In this document: piece after piece, positions 29,948 to 49,924 of the stretch
Layout of the letters: each line of letters starts with the position of its first letter
Position numbering within the stretch: position 1 is the stretch's first letter
Origin: an uncultured virus (IMG/VR IMGVR_UViG_2823577039_000003)
Lineage: Duplodnaviria; Heunggongvirae; Uroviricota; Caudoviricetes
Virus record (IMG/VR): IMGVR_UViG_2823577039_000003
Strand: one strand, 5' to 3'
DNA length: 64,000 nt
Notes under the pieces: model-generated
What the model was told of the DNA's origin: nothing
Databases searched by the model: none
The model's input: only the letters and a program-made list of their open reading frames with translations
Made by a program: the position numbers and the translations under genes

Positions 29948-31084
29948 ATGAAGAAATACAACTGTCCTAAATGGCAGCATAAAAAGGTGATTACACTGAC
30001 TAACTTTGACCCAATACAGAACTATATTTATAGCAAGCGAAACGGTGGACTGCGAGTATCCTTGGGTGGACTAAACCCAACTGGCGCATCCTGTGAGATA
30101 ACTAACGAAAAAGGCAACCGTGTGTTGATTGGCAAATGCCACCGACAAGTATGGTATAGTAAAAAGAGAGTTCCACGAACCAATGAATCTGATGATATGA
30201 GTATGATCCGCTTCGGTATTGGTGATGCTTATGAAGAAGAACTACAACAACACTGGGAGAAACAAGGTATTCTCTTGGCTTCCAATCTTAAACTGAAAGC
30301 ACCTATTGGAGTCTGTTCAGATGGTGAGCAGATTGACATGAGTGGTGAAATTGACGCTATTCTAAGAATGTGTGAGATGGATGAGTATGGGCGAGTAACA
30401 TCTATGAATATGGATGAAGCCATCGCTATTGAAGTTAAATCTACTCGTGGATATTTTAGTGAGAAGGGACTCATGGGTAAAGGCAATAAGATTTATCCTA
30501 TTGGTTATCCTAAGTTGGAACACTTAATGCAGACTGGAATGTATTTACATACTCGTAAGGTAGTAGAAGATACTTACGGTGTCAAAATCCCTTATGCCGT
30601 GATTGTGTATGGTTTAGTAGACTCTTGTAAGACCAATCAATTCCGCATTGAGTTATCAAATGACTATGATGGTGAAATCTTAGTTAAAACTATGGATGGC
30701 AGACCTATCGTGCCACAAACCGATCCTATGGAACAGTTGAAAGACCCTAATGGTAAAACTAATGTGCCTATTGGTGGACTAACTATTGAAAACATTTTGG
30801 CTCGCTATGTGGAATCCTATGAGAAACTCAAGGCCGATAGTCCCCCAGACCGTGATTTCAGCCTTCGTTATTCCGATGAAGTGTTTGAAGAACTGAAGAA
30901 GCAAGGTGAACTTACCAAAACCAAGATGGCTGCTTTTGAAAAGAATGCTACTAATCCTGTAGGTGACTGGCAGTGTTCTTATTGTGATTGGAAAGATGAG
31001 TGCTATCCTTTTGGTGTGATGACTGAACTGGTGGAATCTGGTGGCATCACTAAAGAAGATGCTATGCGTGAACTCGGTTTCTGA
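29948..31084 (+). CDS. Cas4-like PD-(D/E)XK exonuclease with Fe-S cysteines
   Basis: C.RQ.WY, SGEIDAI, IEVKS, Q...Y, CSYCDWKDEC; start uncertain. Confidence 0.8.
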   Translation: MKKYNCPKWQHKKVITLTNFDPIQNYIYSKRNGGLRVSLGGLNPTGASCEITNEKGNRVLIGKCHRQVWYSKKRVPRTNESDDMSMIRFGIGDAYEEELQQHWEKQGILLASNLKLKAPIGVCSDGEQIDMSGEIDAILRMCEMDEYGRVTSMNMDEAIAIEVKSTRGYFSEKGLMGKGNKIYPIGYPKLEHLMQTGMYLHTRKVVEDTYGVKIPYAVIVYGLVDSCKTNQFRIELSNDYDGEILVKTMDGRPIVPQTDPMEQLKDPNGKTNVPIGGLTIENILARYVESYEKLKADSPPDRDFSLRYSDEVFEELKKQGELTKTKMAAFEKNATNPVGDWQCSYCDWKDECYPFGVMTELVESGGITKEDAMRELGF

Positions 31085-31169
31085 TTTATTAGAGAAGCGC
31101 ACTTCTCAGGGGAAAGGATAAATCAGCGATATCGCTAACTACATATAGTTAGTGTGTCCATTATATTCC

Positions 31170-36251: not shown

Positions 36252-37547
36252 ATTTAACGCTGCTTCCATGCCGGGGTGGAGATTAGGAACTTGTTTCCAT
36301 GCATCTAAAGTTGCCCAACGCCAATCATCCCATTCCCATTTGAACTCATTAATTTCGGGTTCAAACTCGGTGTCTACATAAAACAAATAAGTGCGGTGAG
36401 AACCATCATCCCAAATAATTCTATGATTCCATCTTTTAATAGTGGCTACAGGTAAACCACTTTCTTCATGGATTTCACGAACCACTGCGTCATACGGTGT
36501 TTCGCCTGCGTCCAAAAATCCAGAAATACCTGACCAAGTGTTAGGAGATAAAACTAATTGTGATCTTAATTGTAGACCAATGCGTCCTGCAGGAGAATAA
36601 AAGATACCTGTAGTAGAACGATACTTATCATCCCACTCTACATCAATCCATTCTTCCTGTTGTAAACGAGGTGGTTTAGTGGTGGTCCACTCTATGTCGT
36701 CCCATCGCTCGGCACCAAACAAATCTCTCAGTCTATATCTCTCATTAAAATTATAAAAAGCAAAATTAATGGAGATAGGGAACTCATCTCTGCGATTGTC
36801 TAAATTATCGGGAGAACCCACTTTCCAACCATATCTTTTATCAAACATCTCTTGGTTCATGGCTTCGCTATTAAACAAACCATAGCCATGACGTTCTGTA
36901 AAATATTTACCAGACTCAATAGCCTTGCGATAAGAGGTCGGGTAGGCTACTACTTCTTCATGACATTGTTCTAATGCTTGTTGGCTAAAACCGGGAAATC
37001 CTCGTCTGCGAGCCACCATAGGATCGAACCACACAGGTTCACCATGTATATTATAACCGATATTACGAGGGTCAATTAAATCCCGAACCCACCAACCAGA
37101 GTCGTATAGATAGGTTACCATGGCCTCATAAATAGATTGTTCTTCCAATTGGTTGCCTTTATCTTTAAGATTACGACCACAAAATTGATTTTGGGCTATG
37201 CAGGGCAACCGTTCCATATTGACGATTCCATATTCAGTGCCTGCAGGGAAGGTAGTTCTTACTCGTCTCCGAGCCTCAGAATCGGTAGTAGTATAACTAA
37301 GTATATTTAAAATGTTGGTGTTCATGATGCCACGAAACGTTTGAAAGACAAAAGGAAGACCCGGGGTCCGGATTCCTTGGTCTTGGTGATTCATAATTTG
37401 AATAAACATATTATATTGTTGTAGATTGCAGGGATTACTAAGATTCATAATCTTAACGACGCTACCATCTGGACCATTGATTTCAGTTTCATCTTCATAA
37501 ACAAAGCCATAATCGCCATAGCCAACAAGGTTACCGAACACGGTCAC
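36231..37547 (-). CDS. Protein-kinase-like domain fused to Nudix hydrolase
   Basis: GYGDYGFVY, VVKI, MERL, RDL...NIG, FDP; Nudix box GFLDAGETPYDAVVREIHEESGL. Confidence 0.8.
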   Translation of the reverse strand: MTVFGNLVGYGDYGFVYEDETEINGPDGSVVKIMNLSNPCNLQQYNMFIQIMNHQDQGIRTPGLPFVFQTFRGIMNTNILNILSYTTTDSEARRRVRTTFPAGTEYGIVNMERLPCIAQNQFCGRNLKDKGNQLEEQSIYEAMVTYLYDSGWWVRDLIDPRNIGYNIHGEPVWFDPMVARRRGFPGFSQQALEQCHEEVVAYPTSYRKAIESGKYFTERHGYGLFNSEAMNQEMFDKRYGWKVGSPDNLDNRRDEFPISINFAFYNFNERYRLRDLFGAERWDDIEWTTTKPPRLQQEEWIDVEWDDKYRSTTGIFYSPAGRIGLQLRSQLVLSPNTWSGISGFLDAGETPYDAVVREIHEESGLPVATIKRWNHRIIWDDGSHRTYLFYVDTEFEPEINEFKWEWDDWRWATLDAWKQVPNLHPGMEAALNLTQQTQ

Positions 37548-40500
37548 TCCTCCTTGGCAACTATAGTTATTTGGTCTAACGCCTTTTTCGTCCGTGCTAA
37601 TTGATTAATTAGTTTACTGGCTTGACGACGATTAAGATCTGGATGTGGGTCACCACCTAATCGCTTAATATAATTACGTTGTTTCTCAGTAGCCAAGTCA
37701 TACCATGCATTGAACTCACGAGTTTCTGCTTCCATGGACTGATTCTTGTTACGAGATATTAACCATTTGTTATCTTGCCAATGCACTAAAGTATATTTAC
37801 CTTGATACTTGCCATCATTAACATAAAACACCCATTTTTTAGGACTGTAAGAAACAGTTTGGAAGGTAGATTTATTATCTAATGATACTTTACCAGCACC
37901 ATAACTGCCTTCGGGAATGTCTCCATCAAAATCTAACCATGACATATTATGGTCAGAAGTGGCAATAGCCAAATGACGTTTATCTGTCGGCATTCCTTTA
38001 GGAATACTCCACGATTTCAAAACACCATCTCGTTCTAACCTCAGATCATAATGCAATCCTGCTCGGTGGGCATCATGTCGTTGCACTCCAAATACTTTAC
38101 TATCTTTAGATTCGGCACCGAATAAACTACCTAATCCTTCAAACACGAATGGTTTTTCATAGTTGTAATGGGCCAGATTAATAGCCATAGGGGTTTCCAG
38201 TGAAATCATACCCTCAGCAACCTGATCAATACCATCAAAGTATCCGTTTTCCTGTTCTCTTTTATTAAAAACTTCTTCTATCAAACCTTCAGATTTCTTT
38301 TCGTCCATCTTTTTCTGAAGTTCTCTAAGTTTTTCCATTTCTGGACCTCGGCCAAACATAATATCAGGGATATTAGATTTAGTAGTCATGATTAACATCT
38401 GATAATCTCTCCAAGTGCGGTTAGAGTTTTCCCAAGCGGCTATGGCCTCTGGACCTGCCATCATACCAGCCAATGCTTCTGCAGTTCCACATTCCGAACA
38501 GATTTCGGTTTCGTTATCATAACGGGCTAATGCGCCGGGGTAAGCACCCGGGGTTTGGTTGTTGGGAATATAACTATAACAGATTGGACAGATGGGTCCA
38601 AGTTCTGATTCTGCACCTAACGCTGTAGGTCCGAAACTATATTTTAAGGAATCGGTAGTATAATCTCCAGTGATTGCCGAAGAAGTCATCAACTCTTGGG
38701 TAGTATATTCATTTAACATTTGTGTAGGTTGGTAAGGTGCCTCAAACTCAGCACGGTAATCGGCCACTACATTCTGAATATCTTTACTATATGAGGCTCT
38801 TTGCTTGCCAGCCTTGGTTGCAGCACGTTTCTGACGAGTAGCCTTGGCATACAATCCCTTTTTCTTGAGTGCTTTGACAGCACCAGCAGGGAAATAAGGT
38901 TCACCAGTTACTGAGGATTTTTTACCCGAGGCTGTGCCCCACTTTTGTTTACTCCAATTGCTGAGATCTTGTTGCTTGGAAGTTTTCTTACCTTTGTAGG
39001 CTCGCAATCCTCTACGCTCACAAGCAGCCTCATACTTTTGTTTCAATAATTGTGATTTACGAGCAGACCATTGTCCTGCTTTCGTGCCATGAGTAGCCTT
39101 GGCTTTGATTTGTTTCTTAAGTTTACGACGAATCTTGGCTTGTTCCTTGCCATAGGTAGCCTCATAATTATCTTCGGCATCAAAGGAAGCACGGCGACCA
39201 AATATATCTAACCACTTCTGTTCCATAAGTCTAACACAATCATTACATAACCACCATGCACCATATTCAGGGTCATCTGAATCTCGGGTGACTCCATAAT
39301 CTTTCAAACCAGCATAACCACGTTGGTCTTTTTCAGCACCTGAACGCAAACACTGATAACATTTAACACCCATATTGAGTTTACCTGTATCATCACGATG
39401 GTAGTCAATAGATTTATCTTCTGCACTCAAAGATTCTTGATTGGCCATTTGGAGGGCTAAACAATCAATACCTCTTGCCAGCAGTTGGGCATCCGTGAGG
39501 TTTTTCAGTTCGGGATAAGTTCGTAAATCATTGAGATAATCCATATAGTCCAACCTATCTTCAGCACCTAAATTAATAGGCAAACAATCATAACAATAAG
39601 TTCCTGCCTGAATGGTAGTCAAACCTTCTTGGGTCTGACATTCACAACACTCTCTTTTATCTTCAGCCTTTTTAGTAGTTTTCTTTTTAGATTTAGAGAA
39701 GCCTTGTCTTTGGGCTGGGTCTTTGTAGGGTCTACCCAAGGCTGTAAATATATCTGCTTCGGTAGCACCTGCTAAGTATTGGTCGGTATTACGATCAAAC
39801 AATCCATACTCACTTAACTTAAGTCCCTTGCGTTTCGCCATCCATCTATATTTAATGTTAAAATCAGCAGGTCCTGTGAAATACAAGATGGTAGCACCCC
39901 AAGCCGCCGGGGTGGTGACCTTAAAGTCTACTTTTTCGCCATCTATAATTACTTGGGCTTTATTTTCGCCTACCCAATTAACTCCTTCGTTGGCTGGTAA
40001 CATATTAGGAAGAGTGTATCCCTCTTTAGGAATAATAACGAAATCAATGTCTCCAATCATCTGTGCACCACGACGGTAAGACCCACAAGCCATCATTTTA
40101 TCTACCATGGGACGAAGGTGGTTTTCTACTTTGGTAACAATTTTATCTGCTTTGGCACGAGGAAACTTAACTTTAGTCTGTTTCGGGGCAGGAGCCTCAA
40201 ACTCTTCTTGGAATCCAGAATCAAAACCTTTCGGTTGCAGACAGTTATCCCGTGCCATACGCACGGCATCAGGGTCATTACCTGTAAACTCACCATATTT
40301 ATGTCGCACTAATAAATCTTTACTGTAATACGGATCGGCTAATCGTGGACCATAGATACCAATCTCGTAAACAACTTTTCTTCCTAAAATTAAGCCACAC
40401 ATTTGTGCTAAAGCCAAATTAAAATTATTTTGACGTGATAAAATCTCTTCCTTGCCATTAGGCATTCGTAAATAAACTTCGTATGTAGAATCACGATGAT

Positions 40501-41521
40501 ACATAGATTCAGCATTGAGACCATAATTAAACTTGGCTTGGTCTTCTAAAAAGTTCCCAGTCACAGCATTAGAATACATTAAATCTCTAACAGACCAGTC
40601 TGTCAGNGCTACTTGTTCAGTTTCAGAACCCGGGAATCCTTCCACATTAAAGGTTTCAGCATCACGCTCTACAGTAGTAAAAGTATTGTTGGCTAATTGT
40701 TTTTCAATAGCCCGAATCTTCCGGTCTACACCACGGGCCTCAAAAGAACTGTCAATAGGAAATGGCTCTTCGGTAAAGAGGTAACTAAAATAATTATATC
40801 TTAGTCGGTCATAAACATCGGAAGCCATCCATTCTTTAACTAAGGGCAGTGGAGACACGATAGGATCGAAAATAACTAATTCTTTGTTAGCACGAAAACC
40901 GTAGTTTCCTGCGGCAGCCGTATCTCGGGTAACTAAATTAAGATTATCCCATAAAAATCCAGAAACTTCTTTAAAGACTTCTACACGAGGGCGAAGACGA
41001 CTGCGACCAAACCTTTCAGGAACGTTTAAGCGTTCCATAGATACTAAATAACTCATACGATGGCCCGGGCCTTTGATACTTAAGAAATTATCGCCCCATG
41101 CCTCGGCTAAATCCATATCTTGAGTCATAATCTCTTCATGAATATCTTTAGCAAACTGCAAGGGTAGTGATTGTTTTAGNGAATCAAAGATTTTAACTAA
41201 TCCNGNAGGGATCTGCGTNCCAGNCCGNTGGTAACTCATGAGTTCATCAAATAAATATACTTGCATTTTAGCAGACATGGGTCGCCATAACATACTCACT
41301 GACCAGTCGTGGTCGTAATCACGATGATTGGGATTGTAACGAACCTTGTAGCGTTCTGATAAATAATCATTATACTCAAAAGCATCTAAAACTTGGCTAC
41401 CAACTCGTGGGAAGGCTTTCATAATCTTAATAACTTTATCTGGTTCTCGGCTGTGTTCAAAAACCCAACCTGTAGCACCACCAGAAATGTAGTCTCCGAT
41501 CATATCAAGAGTTAGTGTCAC
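37544..41521 (-). CDS. 1325-aa polyprotein: kinase-like, PolX, Zn fingers, basic WSARK domain, LigD 3'-phosphoesterase
   Basis: Kinase GGATGWVF/KVIK/RD....NYG/FDP; PolX GSYRRG...GDID...YFTG...LSEYGLF; PE HYDLRLE..GVLKSW..PKG...YGAG; modules separated by xxAE linkers. Confidence 0.85.
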   Translation of the reverse strand: MTLTLDMIGDYISGGATGWVFEHSREPDKVIKIMKAFPRVGSQVLDAFEYNDYLSERYKVRYNPNHRDYDHDWSVSMLWRPMSAKMQVYLFDELMSYXRXXTQIPXGLVKIFDXLKQSLPLQFAKDIHEEIMTQDMDLAEAWGDNFLSIKGPGHRMSYLVSMERLNVPERFGRSRLRPRVEVFKEVSGFLWDNLNLVTRDTAAAGNYGFRANKELVIFDPIVSPLPLVKEWMASDVYDRLRYNYFSYLFTEEPFPIDSSFEARGVDRKIRAIEKQLANNTFTTVERDAETFNVEGFPGSETEQVXLTDWSVRDLMYSNAVTGNFLEDQAKFNYGLNAESMYHRDSTYEVYLRMPNGKEEILSRQNNFNLALAQMCGLILGRKVVYEIGIYGPRLADPYYSKDLLVRHKYGEFTGNDPDAVRMARDNCLQPKGFDSGFQEEFEAPAPKQTKVKFPRAKADKIVTKVENHLRPMVDKMMACGSYRRGAQMIGDIDFVIIPKEGYTLPNMLPANEGVNWVGENKAQVIIDGEKVDFKVTTPAAWGATILYFTGPADFNIKYRWMAKRKGLKLSEYGLFDRNTDQYLAGATEADIFTALGRPYKDPAQRQGFSKSKKKTTKKAEDKRECCECQTQEGLTTIQAGTYCYDCLPINLGAEDRLDYMDYLNDLRTYPELKNLTDAQLLARGIDCLALQMANQESLSAEDKSIDYHRDDTGKLNMGVKCYQCLRSGAEKDQRGYAGLKDYGVTRDSDDPEYGAWWLCNDCVRLMEQKWLDIFGRRASFDAEDNYEATYGKEQAKIRRKLKKQIKAKATHGTKAGQWSARKSQLLKQKYEAACERRGLRAYKGKKTSKQQDLSNWSKQKWGTASGKKSSVTGEPYFPAGAVKALKKKGLYAKATRQKRAATKAGKQRASYSKDIQNVVADYRAEFEAPYQPTQMLNEYTTQELMTSSAITGDYTTDSLKYSFGPTALGAESELGPICPICYSYIPNNQTPGAYPGALARYDNETEICSECGTAEALAGMMAGPEAIAAWENSNRTWRDYQMLIMTTKSNIPDIMFGRGPEMEKLRELQKKMDEKKSEGLIEEVFNKREQENGYFDGIDQVAEGMISLETPMAINLAHYNYEKPFVFEGLGSLFGAESKDSKVFGVQRHDAHRAGLHYDLRLERDGVLKSWSIPKGMPTDKRHLAIATSDHNMSWLDFDGDIPEGSYGAGKVSLDNKSTFQTVSYSPKKWVFYVNDGKYQGKYTLVHWQDNKWLISRNKNQSMEAETREFNAWYDLATEKQRNYIKRLGGDPHPDLNRRQASKLINQLARTKKALDQITIVAKEE

Positions 41522-41531
41522 TTGTAATCAC

Positions 41532-42368
41532 CTAATGTTCTGGAAAACTCTTGAAGTCATCAATAACCTCAATAATCTTTTGTTTGTTGGAATTGGCATA
41601 CCACAAACCACCCAGAACGGCGAAAATACCCAGTGCACCCAGTCCATTGAATACATTTAGTTGGCTACTGCTAATTCCCTCAGCACCCAAGGAAGGACCT
41701 TCTAAATCCATAATTCCCATCATACCATAGCGTCCCAAGGCTTCTTGGAACTTAAACCAATCTACTCCAGAATCGTTGCGTAGAGTTAATCCCCCATTTC
41801 CATCAGGAACTTGTTTATTCTGACCAGACTCGGGAGTAATGCCATATGGGTCAACGCCGGGGTTGGAATCACGCATAGCAGAAACAATGGTTTGAGTATC
41901 TGGGAATACCAAAGTGCGAACACGGTTGTGAATAACTTTCTTACCTGTAGGCTTGCCATCAGGTCCTTTTTGGATTTGTTGATGAGGATAAACCAAGAAT
42001 TGCACAATATATTTATTGTTATCTCGGGAATCTACATACTCACGGCAGATATCTGTGGACGAGAAATACTGACGACCTGTGTAAATCTTACCATCTTTTA
42101 GTGGATGGCCATGAATAGTCCATTTCTGGTCGTTTAAACCACGCATTAAAGCGTCTTGAGCACCTTTACTTTGAGGAGAAACCTTGATAGCAGACTCTTC
42201 ACCATAAGATACTCCACCTAACTCATAAATACCATTATCGTCGTAAACGTAACACATCCATTCACGCTCTTCATTAGTATTATCAGCGTATTTCTTCATC
42301 TCACGCAGAGAACGGTCGCTAAACCTACTGAACTCCCTTTTCCAAGGAGGCATATTTTGATTAGTCAT
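41532..42368 (-). CDS. JAB/MPN-like metallopeptidase with C-terminal TM
   Basis: E (EREW) ... HGHP ... SSTD resembles the JAMM motif; C-terminal hydrophobic helix. Confidence 0.6.
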   Translation of the reverse strand: MTNQNMPPWKREFSRFSDRSLREMKKYADNTNEEREWMCYVYDDNGIYELGGVSYGEESAIKVSPQSKGAQDALMRGLNDQKWTIHGHPLKDGKIYTGRQYFSSTDICREYVDSRDNNKYIVQFLVYPHQQIQKGPDGKPTGKKVIHNRVRTLVFPDTQTIVSAMRDSNPGVDPYGITPESGQNKQVPDGNGGLTLRNDSGVDWFKFQEALGRYGMMGIMDLEGPSLGAEGISSSQLNVFNGLGALGIFAVLGGLWYANSNKQKIIEVIDDFKSFPEH

Positions 42369-45274
42369 TACCTGTATGAGATCACCACCATATCCTTAGT
42401 TGTTCCACTACTTAACTTTAATGGTTGGCCCATTTGTTCCANGAGAGGTCTGAGACTCTGGTTTACTTCAATTTTTATCGGGAATCCAGAAGCACCAGAT
42501 TCTAATATGTTGTAAGCAATTCCTTTTTCGTCACAATAATCAATAACACCGGGAATGGCTACAGGATAAATATATTTACCCATCTTAATCAAACGAGTTT
42601 TAACGAAAGTAAATCCAGCCTCACCGTCGGCTAATTGTGCCCCAGTAAACTGTTTTACTTCACCAGACATTAAATCTACACGAGTTTCTAAGTGACGATC
42701 TGTGCTGAGAGTTTGACTTAGTGAGCGTCGTTTAGCCTTTTCACGTTCTTCTTCTTTGGCCCGTTCTGCAGGACTCATAGAAGTATCAATAGTATCGGCA
42801 GGAGTGAACTCACCTTGAGCAGAACTTTCAGGTTCAGGTTGATAACAATCTAAAGTAAGTTTAGGAAGCAACAAAGCACCCACTAAAGTATTACTATCTT
42901 GTGGAGGAATAACTACTACATAATCTGTGCCGAAATCTTGAGAAACAGTAACTACGCTTCCTACGTCAAAACTCGGAGACAACCAAGGGGTGACAGTTTC
43001 TCCTTTAGAAGTTTGTTGTCCCACACCAATAGGTTGCCAGTTATCCATATCATTAGGATCGGGATAATCAATAACTACAGGATTCTTGTAGAGTCCTAAA
43101 TAATCTGTAACTTTAACTCTATCAGTGCGCTTATGCTCGGGTTCTTGACCTGACATCATTTGCATCATGACATTCGGGTCACCACCTAATTCCAACCATG
43201 TAGCCACGGATTCGTATAATTCTGGCCATTCTGATTTAGCATAATTACCATTAAGATTAACTACGGTGCAAATAGTCTGNAAGTTTTCTAAACGTTGGAG
43301 TTCTTCCTCATAGGCTTCTTCAAAGGCTTCTTTAATATCTTCACGAGATTGGTCTAATTCGCCCATATCGGCTTGAGTCATGGCTTCATCAATAGGATTA
43401 CCTAATGGGGCGACCTCTACATTTTGGTCACTTAAGGTTTCATTAATTACTTCTTGAGCCTCGGCTTCGGAATCAAATTGCATGGGGTGACCTGCATCTT
43501 GAATGAACTGGCCAGTATCTTTATCTAAAATACCCCATTTTTGTTCGTTAAGTTCTTGGTCTGCAGCCTGAGCGATTTCAGTCATAGCCTCGGCAGTCTC
43601 ATCATCTTGCATAACTTCAGCAGCCTGACGACCGGCTTCAGCAGCGTCTTTAATGGAAGCCCAATCTTCACGATTCTCGGCAGTATCAATAGCATTATTA
43701 AGATTATCTATGGCATTTTCCATAGCATCGTTAGCACCATCAGCGTTATCTTGTGAGGCTTGTGAGTTGGCTTCGTGTGCGTCATTCTTGGCTTGAGTAG
43801 AAGATTGTTGAGATTCACTGGCTGTTTTGCCTTTTTGCATATTATCTATTTGGTCACTGGCAGCCTGCTTCTGATCATTAGATAGTTCAGAATCATTGAT
43901 AGCATCACGCACTGCTTCTTTAGCAGATTCCATACTACCATTATCAAGTGGGTTATTCGGATTTCCAGTCTGGCAACAATCATCTAAGGCATCCATAGCC
44001 TCATTGTAATTACCATCTCGGGCTTCTTGTTTTGCTAAATCGGAAAGGTCACTACATTCTTGTGACCGTGAATCAGATTGCTTATCGTAATCTTTCTGGG
44101 CTTGGTCCCGAGCAGCATCACGAGCCTGTTCTTGTTCTTTTTCTTGTTGAGTTTGTGGCAAATTGCCAGTGAAATCTTCCATNGAGTTAGCAGAGTTATC
44201 TTCGGGTGCTTGACCTTCAGAGGGTTGTCCTCCTTCTCCACCAGTTTCTCCGCNTTCGCCAGAGGGTTGGCCTTCGCCCTGACCTTCGCCTGAACCAGAT
44301 TCTCCACCTTCACCGCCTTCGCCGCTTCCTTCGCCTTCGCCTGAGCCTTGGCCTTCGCCTTGACCCTCTCCACTACCTTCTCCAGAGCCTTCGCCTGAAC
44401 CTTCACCGCTACCAGAGCCTTCACCCTGTCCGCCAGATTCACCTTGACCTCCTTCTCCAGAACCTGAACCTTCGCCTTGGCCTGAGCCTTCACCGCTTCC
44501 AGAGGATTCTCCTTGACCTTGGCCTTCGCCACTGCCACCAGAGCCACCCTCTCCACTTTCCCCAGAGGTTGAAGAGCCTTCTCCTTGTCCACCTTCTCCA
44601 GAACCTGAGCCTTGGCCTTCGCCTTGACCCTCTCCAGAACCTGAACCACCTTCACCAGATGGTTGTCCAAATCCTGCTTGGTCGTTGCCCTGTTCAGGGG
44701 TTAATCCCGGAATGCCTCCTGCGGGTGGGAATGGTAATGGACTTGATGGTGGGCCTCCGCCTCCTGCGGGTTCAGGGCTTCCGCCACCTCCGCCGCCGCC
44801 TCCGCCGCCGCCTCCGCCTCCACCGCCTCCTGCGGGTGGCATAGCAGACATACCTCCACCACCGCCACCACCGCCGGGGGCTGATACTGGACCATGGGGA
44901 GTTTGCATATTGGCATTGTCATCAACAAAGACTTCTTTATCATTAGCAGTATATTTATTGCGATCATAAGTAAGAATCATCATGCCCATTCCAGTAGTCA
45001 TCTTAACCAGTGGGCAGTTTCCTAAAAGACCAGCCCAAAATTGAATTATCGGTTCTGAAGCCGTGATAGTTAGATTTATTTTATTACCTATAATACCTGA
45101 AGGTGGAACACCCATAGTGGGGTGAGATTCTATGTATTGACGAATAGATGGAATAGTAGATACTATAAGGGTGCTCTCTATAGTATAATAATAGACGTGC
45201 ACCCAACCTGCGGGTTGGTTGGCTCTAACGGCGGTATCACCTGTGCTTGGATCTAACCATAAGTATTTCACCAT
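42368..45274 (-). CDS. 968-aa low-complexity Gly/Ser/Glu-rich protein
   Basis: Poly-Gly, GEG[SQ] repeats, Ala/Asp/Glu helical region; promoter 23 nt upstream. Confidence 0.75.
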   Translation of the reverse strand: MVKYLWLDPSTGDTAVRANQPAGWVHVYYYTIESTLIVSTIPSIRQYIESHPTMGVPPSGIIGNKINLTITASEPIIQFWAGLLGNCPLVKMTTGMGMMILTYDRNKYTANDKEVFVDDNANMQTPHGPVSAPGGGGGGGGMSAMPPAGGGGGGGGGGGGGGGGGSPEPAGGGGPPSSPLPFPPAGGIPGLTPEQGNDQAGFGQPSGEGGSGSGEGQGEGQGSGSGEGGQGEGSSTSGESGEGGSGGSGEGQGQGESSGSGEGSGQGEGSGSGEGGQGESGGQGEGSGSGEGSGEGSGEGSGEGQGEGQGSGEGEGSGEGGEGGESGSGEGQGEGQPSGEXGETGGEGGQPSEGQAPEDNSANXMEDFTGNLPQTQQEKEQEQARDAARDQAQKDYDKQSDSRSQECSDLSDLAKQEARDGNYNEAMDALDDCCQTGNPNNPLDNGSMESAKEAVRDAINDSELSNDQKQAASDQIDNMQKGKTASESQQSSTQAKNDAHEANSQASQDNADGANDAMENAIDNLNNAIDTAENREDWASIKDAAEAGRQAAEVMQDDETAEAMTEIAQAADQELNEQKWGILDKDTGQFIQDAGHPMQFDSEAEAQEVINETLSDQNVEVAPLGNPIDEAMTQADMGELDQSREDIKEAFEEAYEEELQRLENXQTICTVVNLNGNYAKSEWPELYESVATWLELGGDPNVMMQMMSGQEPEHKRTDRVKVTDYLGLYKNPVVIDYPDPNDMDNWQPIGVGQQTSKGETVTPWLSPSFDVGSVVTVSQDFGTDYVVVIPPQDSNTLVGALLLPKLTLDCYQPEPESSAQGEFTPADTIDTSMSPAERAKEEEREKAKRRSLSQTLSTDRHLETRVDLMSGEVKQFTGAQLADGEAGFTFVKTRLIKMGKYIYPVAIPGVIDYCDEKGIAYNILESGASGFPIKIEVNQSLRPLXEQMGQPLKLSSGTTKDMVVISYR
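44200..44880 (-). repeat. Coding low-complexity repeats (GEGSGEGQ-type and poly-Gly)
   Basis: Recurring CCTTCGCC/CCTTCACC and CCGCCGCCT units. Confidence 0.85.
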
Positions 45275-47931: not shown

Positions 47932-47966
47932 AGAAGTATAAATAGATGGTAGAGAGTAGTGATAAT

Positions 47967-48962
47967 ATGCGTCCCGTGACCGTAAGAAGATGTCGTCGTG
48001 CATATACTATGATGCGTGATAATAATTCCTCTTTGGGTGCGGCGGCTAAATCCGTGGGAACTACTTCCCGAACTCTGAAGAAATACTTTCAAGATAATGG
48101 GATAAAAATTAAAAGACTCAAAGGAGGGCAGTATCGTATCGTCCTGCCACCTAAAGAATTACGAGAGCAAATGATGTTGCTGATGCAACCACGCCCTCTG
48201 GGGAAAGGAATGAGTGCCACTCGTGCTGCCAAGGAGTTACACACTACTGTCCGAAAGATGAGGTATCAAAGAATGCCTGTAGACACTCCTGCTGGTAAGC
48301 GATATTATCCGATTCTAAAGAAAAATCCAATTGGAAAATGGGAAACTAACTTTACGCCCTTATCCGAAAACTCACTGGTCGTGTATGGATATATCTATGG
48401 TTTGAATGATGCTATCCAAGGAAAGGCTACTCAATTAGGACCAGATGCTAAAGCCGCTAACTCCGATCCTAATTATGCTGACATTTGGTGGCAAATTGAT
48501 TTCAATAATTTCCCTTCTACTCTACAAGGTAANAATCTAATTGGAAAATACAAAAAAGCAATTGTAGATTTAGTCAAAAAAGAAATGATGACACCTAAAA
48601 TTACCAATTTAAGATTAGCAACTAAGTTCTTAGGAAATGCCAGCGTAGCAGCCGAGGCTGCAGCCTCTGGGAGAGGTGCTGCCGGTGCNAATATGAAACT
48701 TACAGTCTTAGAAGATATGTTGGAACGTTATGATATTCACATGGATAAAGATATGAATAAAATTAAGATGGGTATTGACGATGTTCGCAGTGGTAAAACC
48801 GACTGGGTGTTGAAGCGCAGATTAAATCCGGGGTTNCCAACCAGTAAGAGAACTGCTACTGGGGATTTCCAAGTGATGTTTTTGCGAAGAAATGGTCTCA
48901 GCACTTATCCGAGTGCAGGTCCTAAGAAGTTGAAACTGCGATACGATCTTAGTAAAGAATGA
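47967..48962 (+). CDS. Protein with two N-terminal HTH-like repeats
   Basis: SLGAAAKSVGTTSRTL and SATRAAKELHTTVRKM; promoter 22 nt upstream. Confidence 0.6.
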   Translation: MRPVTVRRCRRAYTMMRDNNSSLGAAAKSVGTTSRTLKKYFQDNGIKIKRLKGGQYRIVLPPKELREQMMLLMQPRPLGKGMSATRAAKELHTTVRKMRYQRMPVDTPAGKRYYPILKKNPIGKWETNFTPLSENSLVVYGYIYGLNDAIQGKATQLGPDAKAANSDPNYADIWWQIDFNNFPSTLQGXNLIGKYKKAIVDLVKKEMMTPKITNLRLATKFLGNASVAAEAAASGRGAAGXNMKLTVLEDMLERYDIHMDKDMNKIKMGIDDVRSGKTDWVLKRRLNPGXPTSKRTATGDFQVMFLRRNGLSTYPSAGPKKLKLRYDLSKE

Positions 48963-49007: not shown

Positions 49008-49223
49008 ATGGGAACTCTAATGCCGAAACAAACTAAAGGAAAAACCTGTGAGATTTGTGGACANGTAGCNCATTGGGAAAGCAAGATTAGTCCTATGGGT
49101 TTCATTAAAGGAACTCGTAAAAATGGATACACCGAATATTTGGCATTTCATTATTGTTCTCCGTGCTTAAACGATTTAGGAGAAGCATTCTGGAAGAAAT
49201 TAGAATACTTTAAATTAGGATGA
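49008..49223 (+). CDS. Small C4 zinc-finger protein
   Basis: CEIC...CSPC. Confidence 0.55.
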   Translation: MGTLMPKQTKGKTCEICGXVXHWESKISPMGFIKGTRKNGYTEYLAFHYCSPCLNDLGEAFWKKLEYFKLG

Positions 49224-49231
49224 ATATAGGG

Positions 49232-49315
49232 TGCTGCCCCCAGTGGTGCGTCCAAGCCCACTGGAAGGTCAGTCTTTCCCCTGAGTTGCGAAGCATCTCA
49301 CCGACCAAGGCAGCA
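49232..49315 (-). ncRNA. Candidate ~84-nt three-way-junction small RNA with its own promoter
   Basis: Stems UGCUGCC/GGCAGCA, GGUCGGU/ACUGACC, CCAGUGG/CCACUGG; TATAAATAGG at 49344-49335 places the start at the base of the closing stem. Confidence 0.6.
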
Positions 49316-49339
49316 TACAGGAGTAGTGTAACCACCTAT

Positions 49340-49924
49340 TTATATCTTAGCAGTATAGTTGGGGTGAATCATTTGACCAATAGGGCCATCGTAAACTAAT
49401 TCATACAATTGTAATTTCTTACCAAACTTATCAGTCTGACCAGCATCATAACGGTCTACCCAACCTTTAGCAATCCATGGACGCATAGTAGAACCAATAA
49501 CACGAGCATTACCTTTAGTATCAAACTTATCCATAATTTTACCTAACTCTCCAGAAGTTAAAGGTCCACGTTGATCTAAAATACGAAGAATAATCCATTT
49601 CTTTTTAGCATGGCGACGAGAACCAATAAGTTCAAAATAACACTCACGACTACAAAAGCGAGAACGATTGCGTCCGCTGGCATCATTATAATGTAANTTA
49701 AAAGTATTACCNCACATATCACAACTTTGTTCAATAGGTGGNTATTTCATAGGATGGTTCTTATGATGTTTAGAATCAGACAAAGGAATCTTCTGATGTC
49801 CTTCAGTATAGAATCTATGACAGTATAAACTACAGTAATCATCTTCAGCAGTATCGCTACAACTATCAATAGGTTTACCACATTTACAATTTTTTCCAGT
49901 GGCAGATAGATGTTTTACAACCAT
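49340..49924 (-). CDS. Zinc-finger plus winged-helix transcription regulator
   Basis: YCSLYC, FCSREC, C-terminal ILRILDQRGPLTSGEL...KGWV. Confidence 0.65.
   Translation of the reverse strand: MVVKHLSATGKNCKCGKPIDSCSDTAEDDYCSLYCHRFYTEGHQKIPLSDSKHHKNHPMKXPPIEQSCDMXGNTFXLHYNDASGRNRSRFCSRECYFELIGSRRHAKKKWIILRILDQRGPLTSGELGKIMDKFDTKGNARVIGSTMRPWIAKGWVDRYDAGQTDKFGKKLQLYELVYDGPIGQMIHPNYTAKI

Follow-up and report, generated by a model that had tools for sequence, protein, structure and literature searches.

A predicted 86-nt three-way-junction RNA with its own TATA box in a marine virus-like element, and copies of its purine-bulge module at stop codons

The window analysed here is a 64,000-nt stretch that forms the first 64 kb of a 136-kb contig (C16, 41.5% GC), and it very probably carries a gene for a real non-coding RNA, to judge by its promoter, fold and conservation. 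The predicted RNA is 86 nt long and displays a purine bulge in the first arm of a three-way junction. The same arm recurs as a module at the stop codons of two other genes, and we tentatively read the RNA, at somewhat less than an even chance, as a stand-alone decoy for a factor that would bind this module in the 3' ends of viral mRNAs. To our knowledge, tRNAs aside, hardly anything is known about the non-coding RNAs that archaeal viruses encode. With its predicted promoter, its fold and a motif that recurs where mRNAs end, the 86-nt RNA could be synthesized and tested at once, and such tests would show in what way these viruses control the 3' ends of their tightly packed, leaderless messages. 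The features are as follows; positions are those of the window, except for the last line.

47946..48962, + strand: gene for a 338-aa protein with an N-terminal winged helix, the sole gene adjoining the RNA in both virus groups
49008..49223, + strand: 71-aa ORF with a Cys motif, converging on the 3' end of the RNA; absent in locus L028
49229..49314, - strand: predicted 86-nt non-coding RNA, three-way junction; 5' end at G49314, 3' end inferred near 49229-49225
49233..49314, - strand: P1, closing stem of 7 bp (49314-49308 with 49239-49233), with pair-keeping changes in relatives
49232-49228, - strand: conserved 5-nt tail after P1, identical in 12 of 12 loci compared
49267..49306, - strand: arm 1 module, made of the P2 stem (6-7 bp), the inner P3 hairpin and the purine bulge
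49274..49282, - strand: purine bulge of 9 nt, AGGGGAAAG, identical in 20 of 20 loci and presumably the site that is recognized
49240..49264, - strand: arm 2 (P4), with a 7-bp stem, a bulged A, 2 bp and a 6-nt loop
49336..49344, - strand: TATA box of archaeal type assigned to the RNA gene, sharing bases with the stop codon at the end of the upstream gene; the same box stands before leaderless genes with an ATG at offset 30
49340..49921, - strand: upstream gene neighbouring the RNA, 193 aa, with a winged helix at the C terminus and two motifs rich in Cys
31081..31126, + strand: second copy of the module (10-bp stem, 6-bp hairpin, identical purine bulge), at the stop codon of a Cas4-like nuclease gene (29948-31084)
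C16 92986-92950, - strand: third copy of the module, outside the window

Read from G49314, an unpaired U lies between P1 and arm 1, two unpaired bases separate arm 1 from arm 2, and a short tail ends the molecule, which has a GC content of 63% and a fold energy of -40.3 kcal/mol (z -3.2). The stems, G-U pairs and TATA box that the initial annotation had described from this stretch are all found in the sequence. Its closing stem is present with 7 bp, but the (UU)/(GG) extension proposed for it counted one G twice, as only five Gs lie between the two arms. The annotation had likewise seen the stem and hairpin of arm 1 but missed the conserved bulge between them (49282-49274), which is the most informative part of the RNA.

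Transcription of the RNA is predicted from the position of its TATA box. After TATA-like boxes, the commonest offset of an ATG is 30, both in C16 (33 of 86 sites) and in G061, a 150-kb IMG/VR record that represents the second virus group (38 of 83), and many viral genes are therefore leaderless. Offset 30 from the box at 49344 falls on G49314, the first base of P1, so the spacing is that of protein genes, as had been claimed, and the RNA likely starts there, where leaderless genes start. The earlier placement of the start at the beginning of the closing stem survives as far as P1 is concerned, with the base corrected from the preceding U to G49314. The base at offset 30 is a G in all 12 related loci compared, while the base before it varies. 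All 13 aligned sequences agree in the box and in the two Gs that follow it, while the spacer between box and start drifts (11-19 of 19 positions identical in relatives). A box that has no ATG at 29-31 and is followed by a compact fold closing on the start base occurs at two of the 86 sites in C16, the RNA described here being one of them, and one of the 83 in G061. The second C16 case (at 89540; fold 89570-89680, + strand) is a weaker closed fold of 112 nt that lies antisense to a gene and is probably due to chance.

A 15-codon ORF overlaps the start of the RNA, with its ATG at offset 28 both here and in 7 of the 12 loci compared, as might be expected of a leaderless mRNA for a 15-residue peptide. 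This ATG begins 2 nt before the inferred RNA start, and the ORF is intact with an ATG in only six of the 12 loci: the start is lost in two and changed to TTG in three, a stop appears at codon 4 in three, and the final stop is lost in two. A peptide-coding function, which the initial annotation had named as an outcome that would undo the RNA, is thus largely refuted and extremely improbable.

Related loci were collected with a profile of the upstream protein, which yielded 20 metagenome loci out of 66 candidate stretches. A model of the RNA, R1, finds it in all 20 (one of them cut by a contig end) and, with default filters, in none of 24 other sources. When 12 loci were compared, leaving out duplicates and the cut locus, the RNA was 94-100% identical in 11 and 86% identical in L028, while the four-fold sites of the upstream gene were 29-75% identical. 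By this measure the RNA gene is under strong selection, with conservation far above that of silent sites.

The substitutions that do occur tend to preserve the fold. In the 12 distinct rows, 332 of 334 paired cells hold standard pairs, compared to 29-50% in slid controls. Six of the eight changed pair types keep pairing; the other two are from L022, in which a bulge lets the stem form anew. Pairing would survive a random single change in 31 of 174 cases. Pair-keeping changes are present in all three long stems: C-G to U-A in L019 and G-C to G.U in L028 in P1; G-C to A-U, G.U to G-C and G.U to A-U in arm 1; and U-A to C-G in arm 2, in five of the 12 rows. Arm 2 is also longer by 13 nt in L028. 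Three pairs change on both sides, so the compensatory changes whose lack was to count against the RNA do exist; since 27 of 500 shuffles reach this number, related loci have changes in common and the model shaped the alignment, the pairing evidence is support rather than formal proof. The choice of the - strand is based on the promoter and on the exchanges seen in relatives (G.U to G-C, G.U to A-U, G-C to G.U). These bear out the earlier assignment to this strand, which folding energy alone leaves undecided, since the + strand of the same stretch also folds non-randomly (z -2.7).

The RNA does not belong to any family that we could recognize, in agreement with the initial annotation, which had found neither a tRNA cloverleaf nor a known family. 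Rfam 15 gave no match at the gathering threshold in the window, only chance-level rows at E up to 10; there was none in L028, and the best in L047 reached 15.9 bits against a cut-off of 42.5. ARAGORN found no tRNA in the window. The RNA has a 7-bp stem and an unpaired A like an acceptor arm, and the tail reads CCC, not CCA, in 12 of 12 loci. A tRNA cloverleaf, or a tRNA-like RNA defined by its T-arm, was rejected, as there is no T-loop or anticodon arm and the UUC triloop varies to UAC and UCU. 5S rRNA is about 120 nt long, with loops A-E and a conserved loop C, while this RNA is 75-99 nt and RF00001 gave no report at E up to 10. Box C/D and H/ACA guides carry C and D boxes or an ACA box, and a kink-turn, while tRNA-like RNAs have a cloverleaf or a T-arm with a UUC loop. 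Here, L019 and L022 differ in the D-like CUGA, L028 differs at the tandem G-A positions and the tail reads ACC, so a guide RNA of either class was also rejected. Likenesses to kink-turn, hammerhead, RNase P, SRP and xrRNA elements were dropped because Rfam gave no match and key positions vary.

Searches outside the related loci were equally negative. An exact 26-mer of the RNA is absent from the viral contigs searched, and the matches to gapped patterns (four) and 17-mers (14) were all attributable to chance by fold and by R1. A pattern scan of genome contigs gave no matches. Scans of viral contigs with the upstream gene, the 338-aa gene and MCM found none, and only profile A5 yielded L047; a PolD scan of genome contigs picked up two unrelated loci. 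The RNA was not found in 60 bacterial relatives of the metagenome-assembled genome (MAG) that contains C16, nor was its neighbour gene in 41; phage and plasmid records gave no match either. As for antisense targets, with the motif copies set aside, no Watson-Crick match in either virus exceeds 13 nt. A literature search found no description of this RNA or of marine viruses with PolD, TBP and TFB. In the viral structured-RNA catalogue of Fremin (PMC10690425), two motifs had no match in six of the nine supplementary files; the largest file lies outside those six, and a listing there is possible. The RNA is apparently undescribed so far.

Several well-studied RNAs share its general architecture. 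tRNA-like RNAs, 5S rRNA and the Φ29 pRNA likewise have a fold that branches, three-way or otherwise, from a terminal closing stem, but the 86-nt RNA has no Rfam or ARAGORN match and no T-loop or CCA, and no complementary loop pair of the pRNA type was found in it. Adenovirus VA RNA and herpesvirus EBERs are short, GC-rich, structured, virus-encoded RNAs that have their own promoters and likely act through proteins. The 86-nt RNA resembles them in being short, GC-rich and structured with a promoter of its own, but that promoter is an archaeal TATA promoter, and fold and size are different. The RNA could thus be a structural or mimic RNA that is unrelated to the module copies in mRNAs: either a pRNA-like scaffold for replication or packaging, or a tRNA- or 5S-like decoy that acts on a host enzyme or RNA sensor in the manner of VA RNA. 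The acceptor-like combination of three-way junction, 7-bp closing stem, unpaired A and CC-rich tail speaks for such a role, as do the location of the RNA within the MCM-PolD module in both virus groups and its near-invariant sequence, which suggests several contacts. The negative family searches weigh against it, a possible primase-like gene in the virus (a weak match, E 0.004) would make a ready-made primer unneeded, and the module copies at stop codons would be left unexplained. We consider a structural or mimic role unlikely.

The genes around the RNA give few hints of a partner. The 193-aa and 338-aa neighbours look like DNA-binding winged-helix proteins, and homologs of the latter in intermediate clades are 55-71% identical. 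No nuclease or RNA-binding fold was found in the neighbour proteins, only winged helices, which leaves a guide-RNA reading without support, and no binding partner for the RNA was identified among the ORFs scanned against Pfam.

In all 20 loci, the RNA follows the stop codon of the 193-aa gene, and both virus groups have a + strand gene running toward it. This is also the arrangement expected of a cis-acting 3' element in the upstream mRNA, with a role in termination, processing or stability, or of a terminator between convergent genes, either of which would make the TATA box incidental. The other two module copies are indeed 3'-end elements. Four sequencing runs were compared with positions 49072-49697, although their contigs are unable to show a short RNA either way: two gave nothing, one that is probably DNA covers the region of the 86-nt RNA, and one RNA run gave a single 168-nt contig that runs over the upstream gene, past the TATA box, and ends at 49320. 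The last of these fits a cis element. However, the TATA box is invariant and its spacing exact while the spacer drifts, and a look-alike RNA in G061 (see below) has no same-strand gene directly upstream and yet has a box at offset 30. These observations make a cis element quite unlikely.

The module formed by arm 1 is not restricted to the RNA. The 11-mer around the bulge occurs three times in C16 and C26, the contig that continues C16, against 0.025 expected. All three exact copies of the purine 9-mer in these contigs can form the module, with unrelated stem sequences, while among 29 looser purine motifs examined the module was present only at the three known places. A stricter test of the module was passed by 47 of 3000 random sites and by two of the three real sites. 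For the copy at 31081, the module has the lowest energy of all folds and leaves the bulge fully unpaired. For the copy at C16 92986, it is sub-optimal: taken alone, that stretch prefers another fold (-8.3 vs -3.4 kcal/mol), and in context it keeps the outer stem with three bulge bases paired. Both extra copies begin at a stop codon and precede the TATA box of the next gene, and neither has a box of its own upstream. One of the stop codons is TAA; the other is TGA, where read-through would add only 17 codons.

A comparable pattern exists in G061, where the purine motif that forms the loop motif of the candidate RNA is the most over-represented 9-mer (20 copies vs 1.0 expected). Five of 18 copies begin at stop codons of ORFs of 262-1186 codons, while about 2% of positions lie near a stop. 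Outside the RNA, none of 17 copies is enclosed by a stem of more than four Watson-Crick pairs. Since stop-linked copies occur in both viruses, the purine motif is common to mRNA ends and the small RNA, structured in one virus and mostly unstructured in the other. Some of the G061 copies lie 1-16 nt before an ATG, and one is reversed inside a promoter.

The copies before start codons recall a Shine-Dalgarno sequence. The bulge might mimic one, pairing with the 3' end of host 16S rRNA and diverting small subunits from leadered host messages in favour of leaderless viral ones. Many viral genes are leaderless, as this would require, and the bulge makes five pairs (-6.2 and -7.2 kcal/mol) with an archaeal anti-Shine-Dalgarno motif, which may differ from that of the host. 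This pairing is far weaker than that of a full Shine-Dalgarno sequence (-17.5), and neither the invariant AAAG end nor the copies that have no start codon after them would be explained, making such mimicry decidedly improbable.

The copies at stop codons are instead most directly accommodated by the decoy reading. The small RNA, made from its own TATA promoter, would adopt the three-way fold and display the invariant bulge. A factor, which might be a viral or host protein or be associated with ribosomes, would recognize the module in the 3' ends of viral mRNAs and there govern termination, the stability of the 3' end or the read-through to the gene that follows. The small RNA would offer the same module on a stable, GC-rich scaffold and thereby titrate or deliver the factor, in the way that CsrB-type decoys do for CsrA. 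Several observations sit poorly with such a decoy. Typical decoys bear many sites and the 86-nt RNA has one; no partner was found, and both neighbours look like DNA-binding proteins; the third module copy prefers another fold, the G061 copies have no good enclosing stem, and the G061 RNA scores only 12.7 bits. On a larger scale, the stop-linked module, its factor and the titrating small RNA might together form a virus-encoded archaeal post-transcriptional circuit that extends across a family of marine viruses of 150-175 kb whose proteins are 30-55% alike, which we regard as doubtful. A putative further pairing between the bulge and the 3' tail is compatible with the sequences of both virus groups and would constitute a new pseudoknotted fold if real.

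CsrB-type RNAs titrate CsrA in bacteria, according to PMC10339803. CsrB/CsrC and RsmY/RsmZ are likewise small, independently transcribed RNAs (a prediction in the present case) with a structured purine motif that is also present in mRNAs; the motif shared with mRNAs of the same genome is found here as the module at two mRNA 3' ends. In contrast to the several GGA hairpin loops of CsrB and RsmZ, the 86-nt RNA has one purine bulge and one loop with a single GGA. It also belongs to an archaeal virus, its mRNA copies are at stop codons rather than ribosome-binding sites, no CsrA-like partner was found and it has no Rfam match. The RNA is thus not a member of the CsrB group but, by analogy, may have a similar way of working.

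The archaeal SECIS element, as portrayed in PMC11881835, has an asymmetric loop with GAA opposite A, flanked by G-C pairs. In its methanogen-type form it resembles the module as a structure behind a coding region with a purine-only asymmetric loop between variable stems. Here, however, the bulge is one-sided and 9 nt long, and the module also exists as a predicted free RNA. A SECIS identity was rejected on account of this bulge and of the upstream stop codons, which are TAA or TAG, or TGA with the short read-through.

The look-alike RNA in G061 lies at the single site in that record where a closed fold follows a box, and R1 likewise ranks this site first in the 150 kb. The score of 12.7 bits (E 0.1 in 21 kb, 0.48 in 100 kb) is not significant alone, and the match is visible only with filters off; a filtered search of the whole record misses it. 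The look-alike is 75 nt long and 77 nt away from the 338-aa gene's ortholog, which is 39% identical. It has the same three-way plan as the window RNA, and the first four and last five bases of the closing-stem region are identical. The purine run closes arm 1, and P3 is missing. As a caution, the ten bases before its start are complementary to the purine run. Position, promoter spacing and plan, taken together, make it likely that the two RNAs are homologous. The ortholog of the upstream gene is about 106 kb away from the look-alike in G061, which argues for an independent RNA gene tied to the replication module.

The G061 locus also bears on whether the stretch functions as RNA at all, rather than as an operator, a hairpin or a polar sequence signal in the DNA of the replication module. 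The look-alike holds a 9-mer that is strictly polar in that genome, and the non-random fold of the + strand in the window and the purine-motif copy reversed inside a promoter would also fit a DNA-level feature. The polar 9-mer is absent from the window RNA, however, the wobble exchanges fit one RNA strand, and the promoter spacing is exact in both virus groups. A function in DNA is therefore very improbable.

The element that carries the RNA does not match the genome in which it was binned. The other contigs of the MAG (G000) mostly have a GC content of 23-30%, compared to 41.5% for C16. Scans against Pfam and PHROGs identified PolD DP2, TFB, an MCM-like helicase, PolX and a DNA ligase on C16, as well as a HerA-like ATPase that matches a terminase profile. 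C26 overlaps the end of C16 by 3.8 kb at 99% and adds PolD DP1, TBP, PCNA, a class II ribonucleotide reductase, two DNA methylases, UvdE and three tRNAs (Pro, Arg and Ala). Going by this overlap, C26 is the continuation of C16, and a single virus has both TBP and TFB along with a full PolD replisome. G061 is matched by 74 of 200 C16 ORFs, counting shadow frames, and the best holders among public runs are marine or aquatic. We read the element, which spans about 170 kb, as a large marine virus or virus-like element with archaeal-type genes that was mis-binned in a bacterial MAG; its host is probably a member of the Poseidoniales. Magrovirales and Satyavativiridae have PolB or no polymerase and a recognised head-tail module; this element has PolD DP1 and DP2, TBP and TFB. 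PolD and TFIIB go unmentioned in the available part of PMC11706807, and neither that account nor the one in PMC13108676 fits the C16/C26 element.

Capsid proteins were searched for with Pfam and 15 PHROGs queries. Two pairs of proteins of 150-210 aa (C16 73009-73990 and 86097-87258) are among the best conserved relative to G061 (48-76%) and had no match in Pfam or PHROGs; they are candidate capsid proteins of an unrecognised type. Within the window, a 1325-aa protein (37544-41521, - strand) combines PolX-type domains with DUF5872 and a LigD 3'-phosphoesterase domain, and a 968-aa protein (42368-45274, - strand) has long low-complexity tracts of Gly, Ser and Glu and differs in length among relatives.

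The polar 9-mer, GGTCTTGAA, is distributed 26:0 by strand in G061, roughly every 6 kb and also inside genes on the opposite strand, with one copy in arm 2 of the G061 RNA. Its counts are 8:0 in C26 and 0:3 in C16, and it resembles a signal that would orient a DNA translocase. A GC-rich family of 8-mers (GCCGGGGT and overlapping words) is distributed 22:0 by strand in C16 and C26 and could represent another polar motif or stem from a codon effect. Finally, on the - strand of C26 (34082-33830; L059 14835-15055), a TATA box is followed by about 220 nt with no long ORF and then by tRNA-Ala. This stretch (z -1.5, no match in Rfam) is a candidate for a second non-coding RNA or a long tRNA leader.
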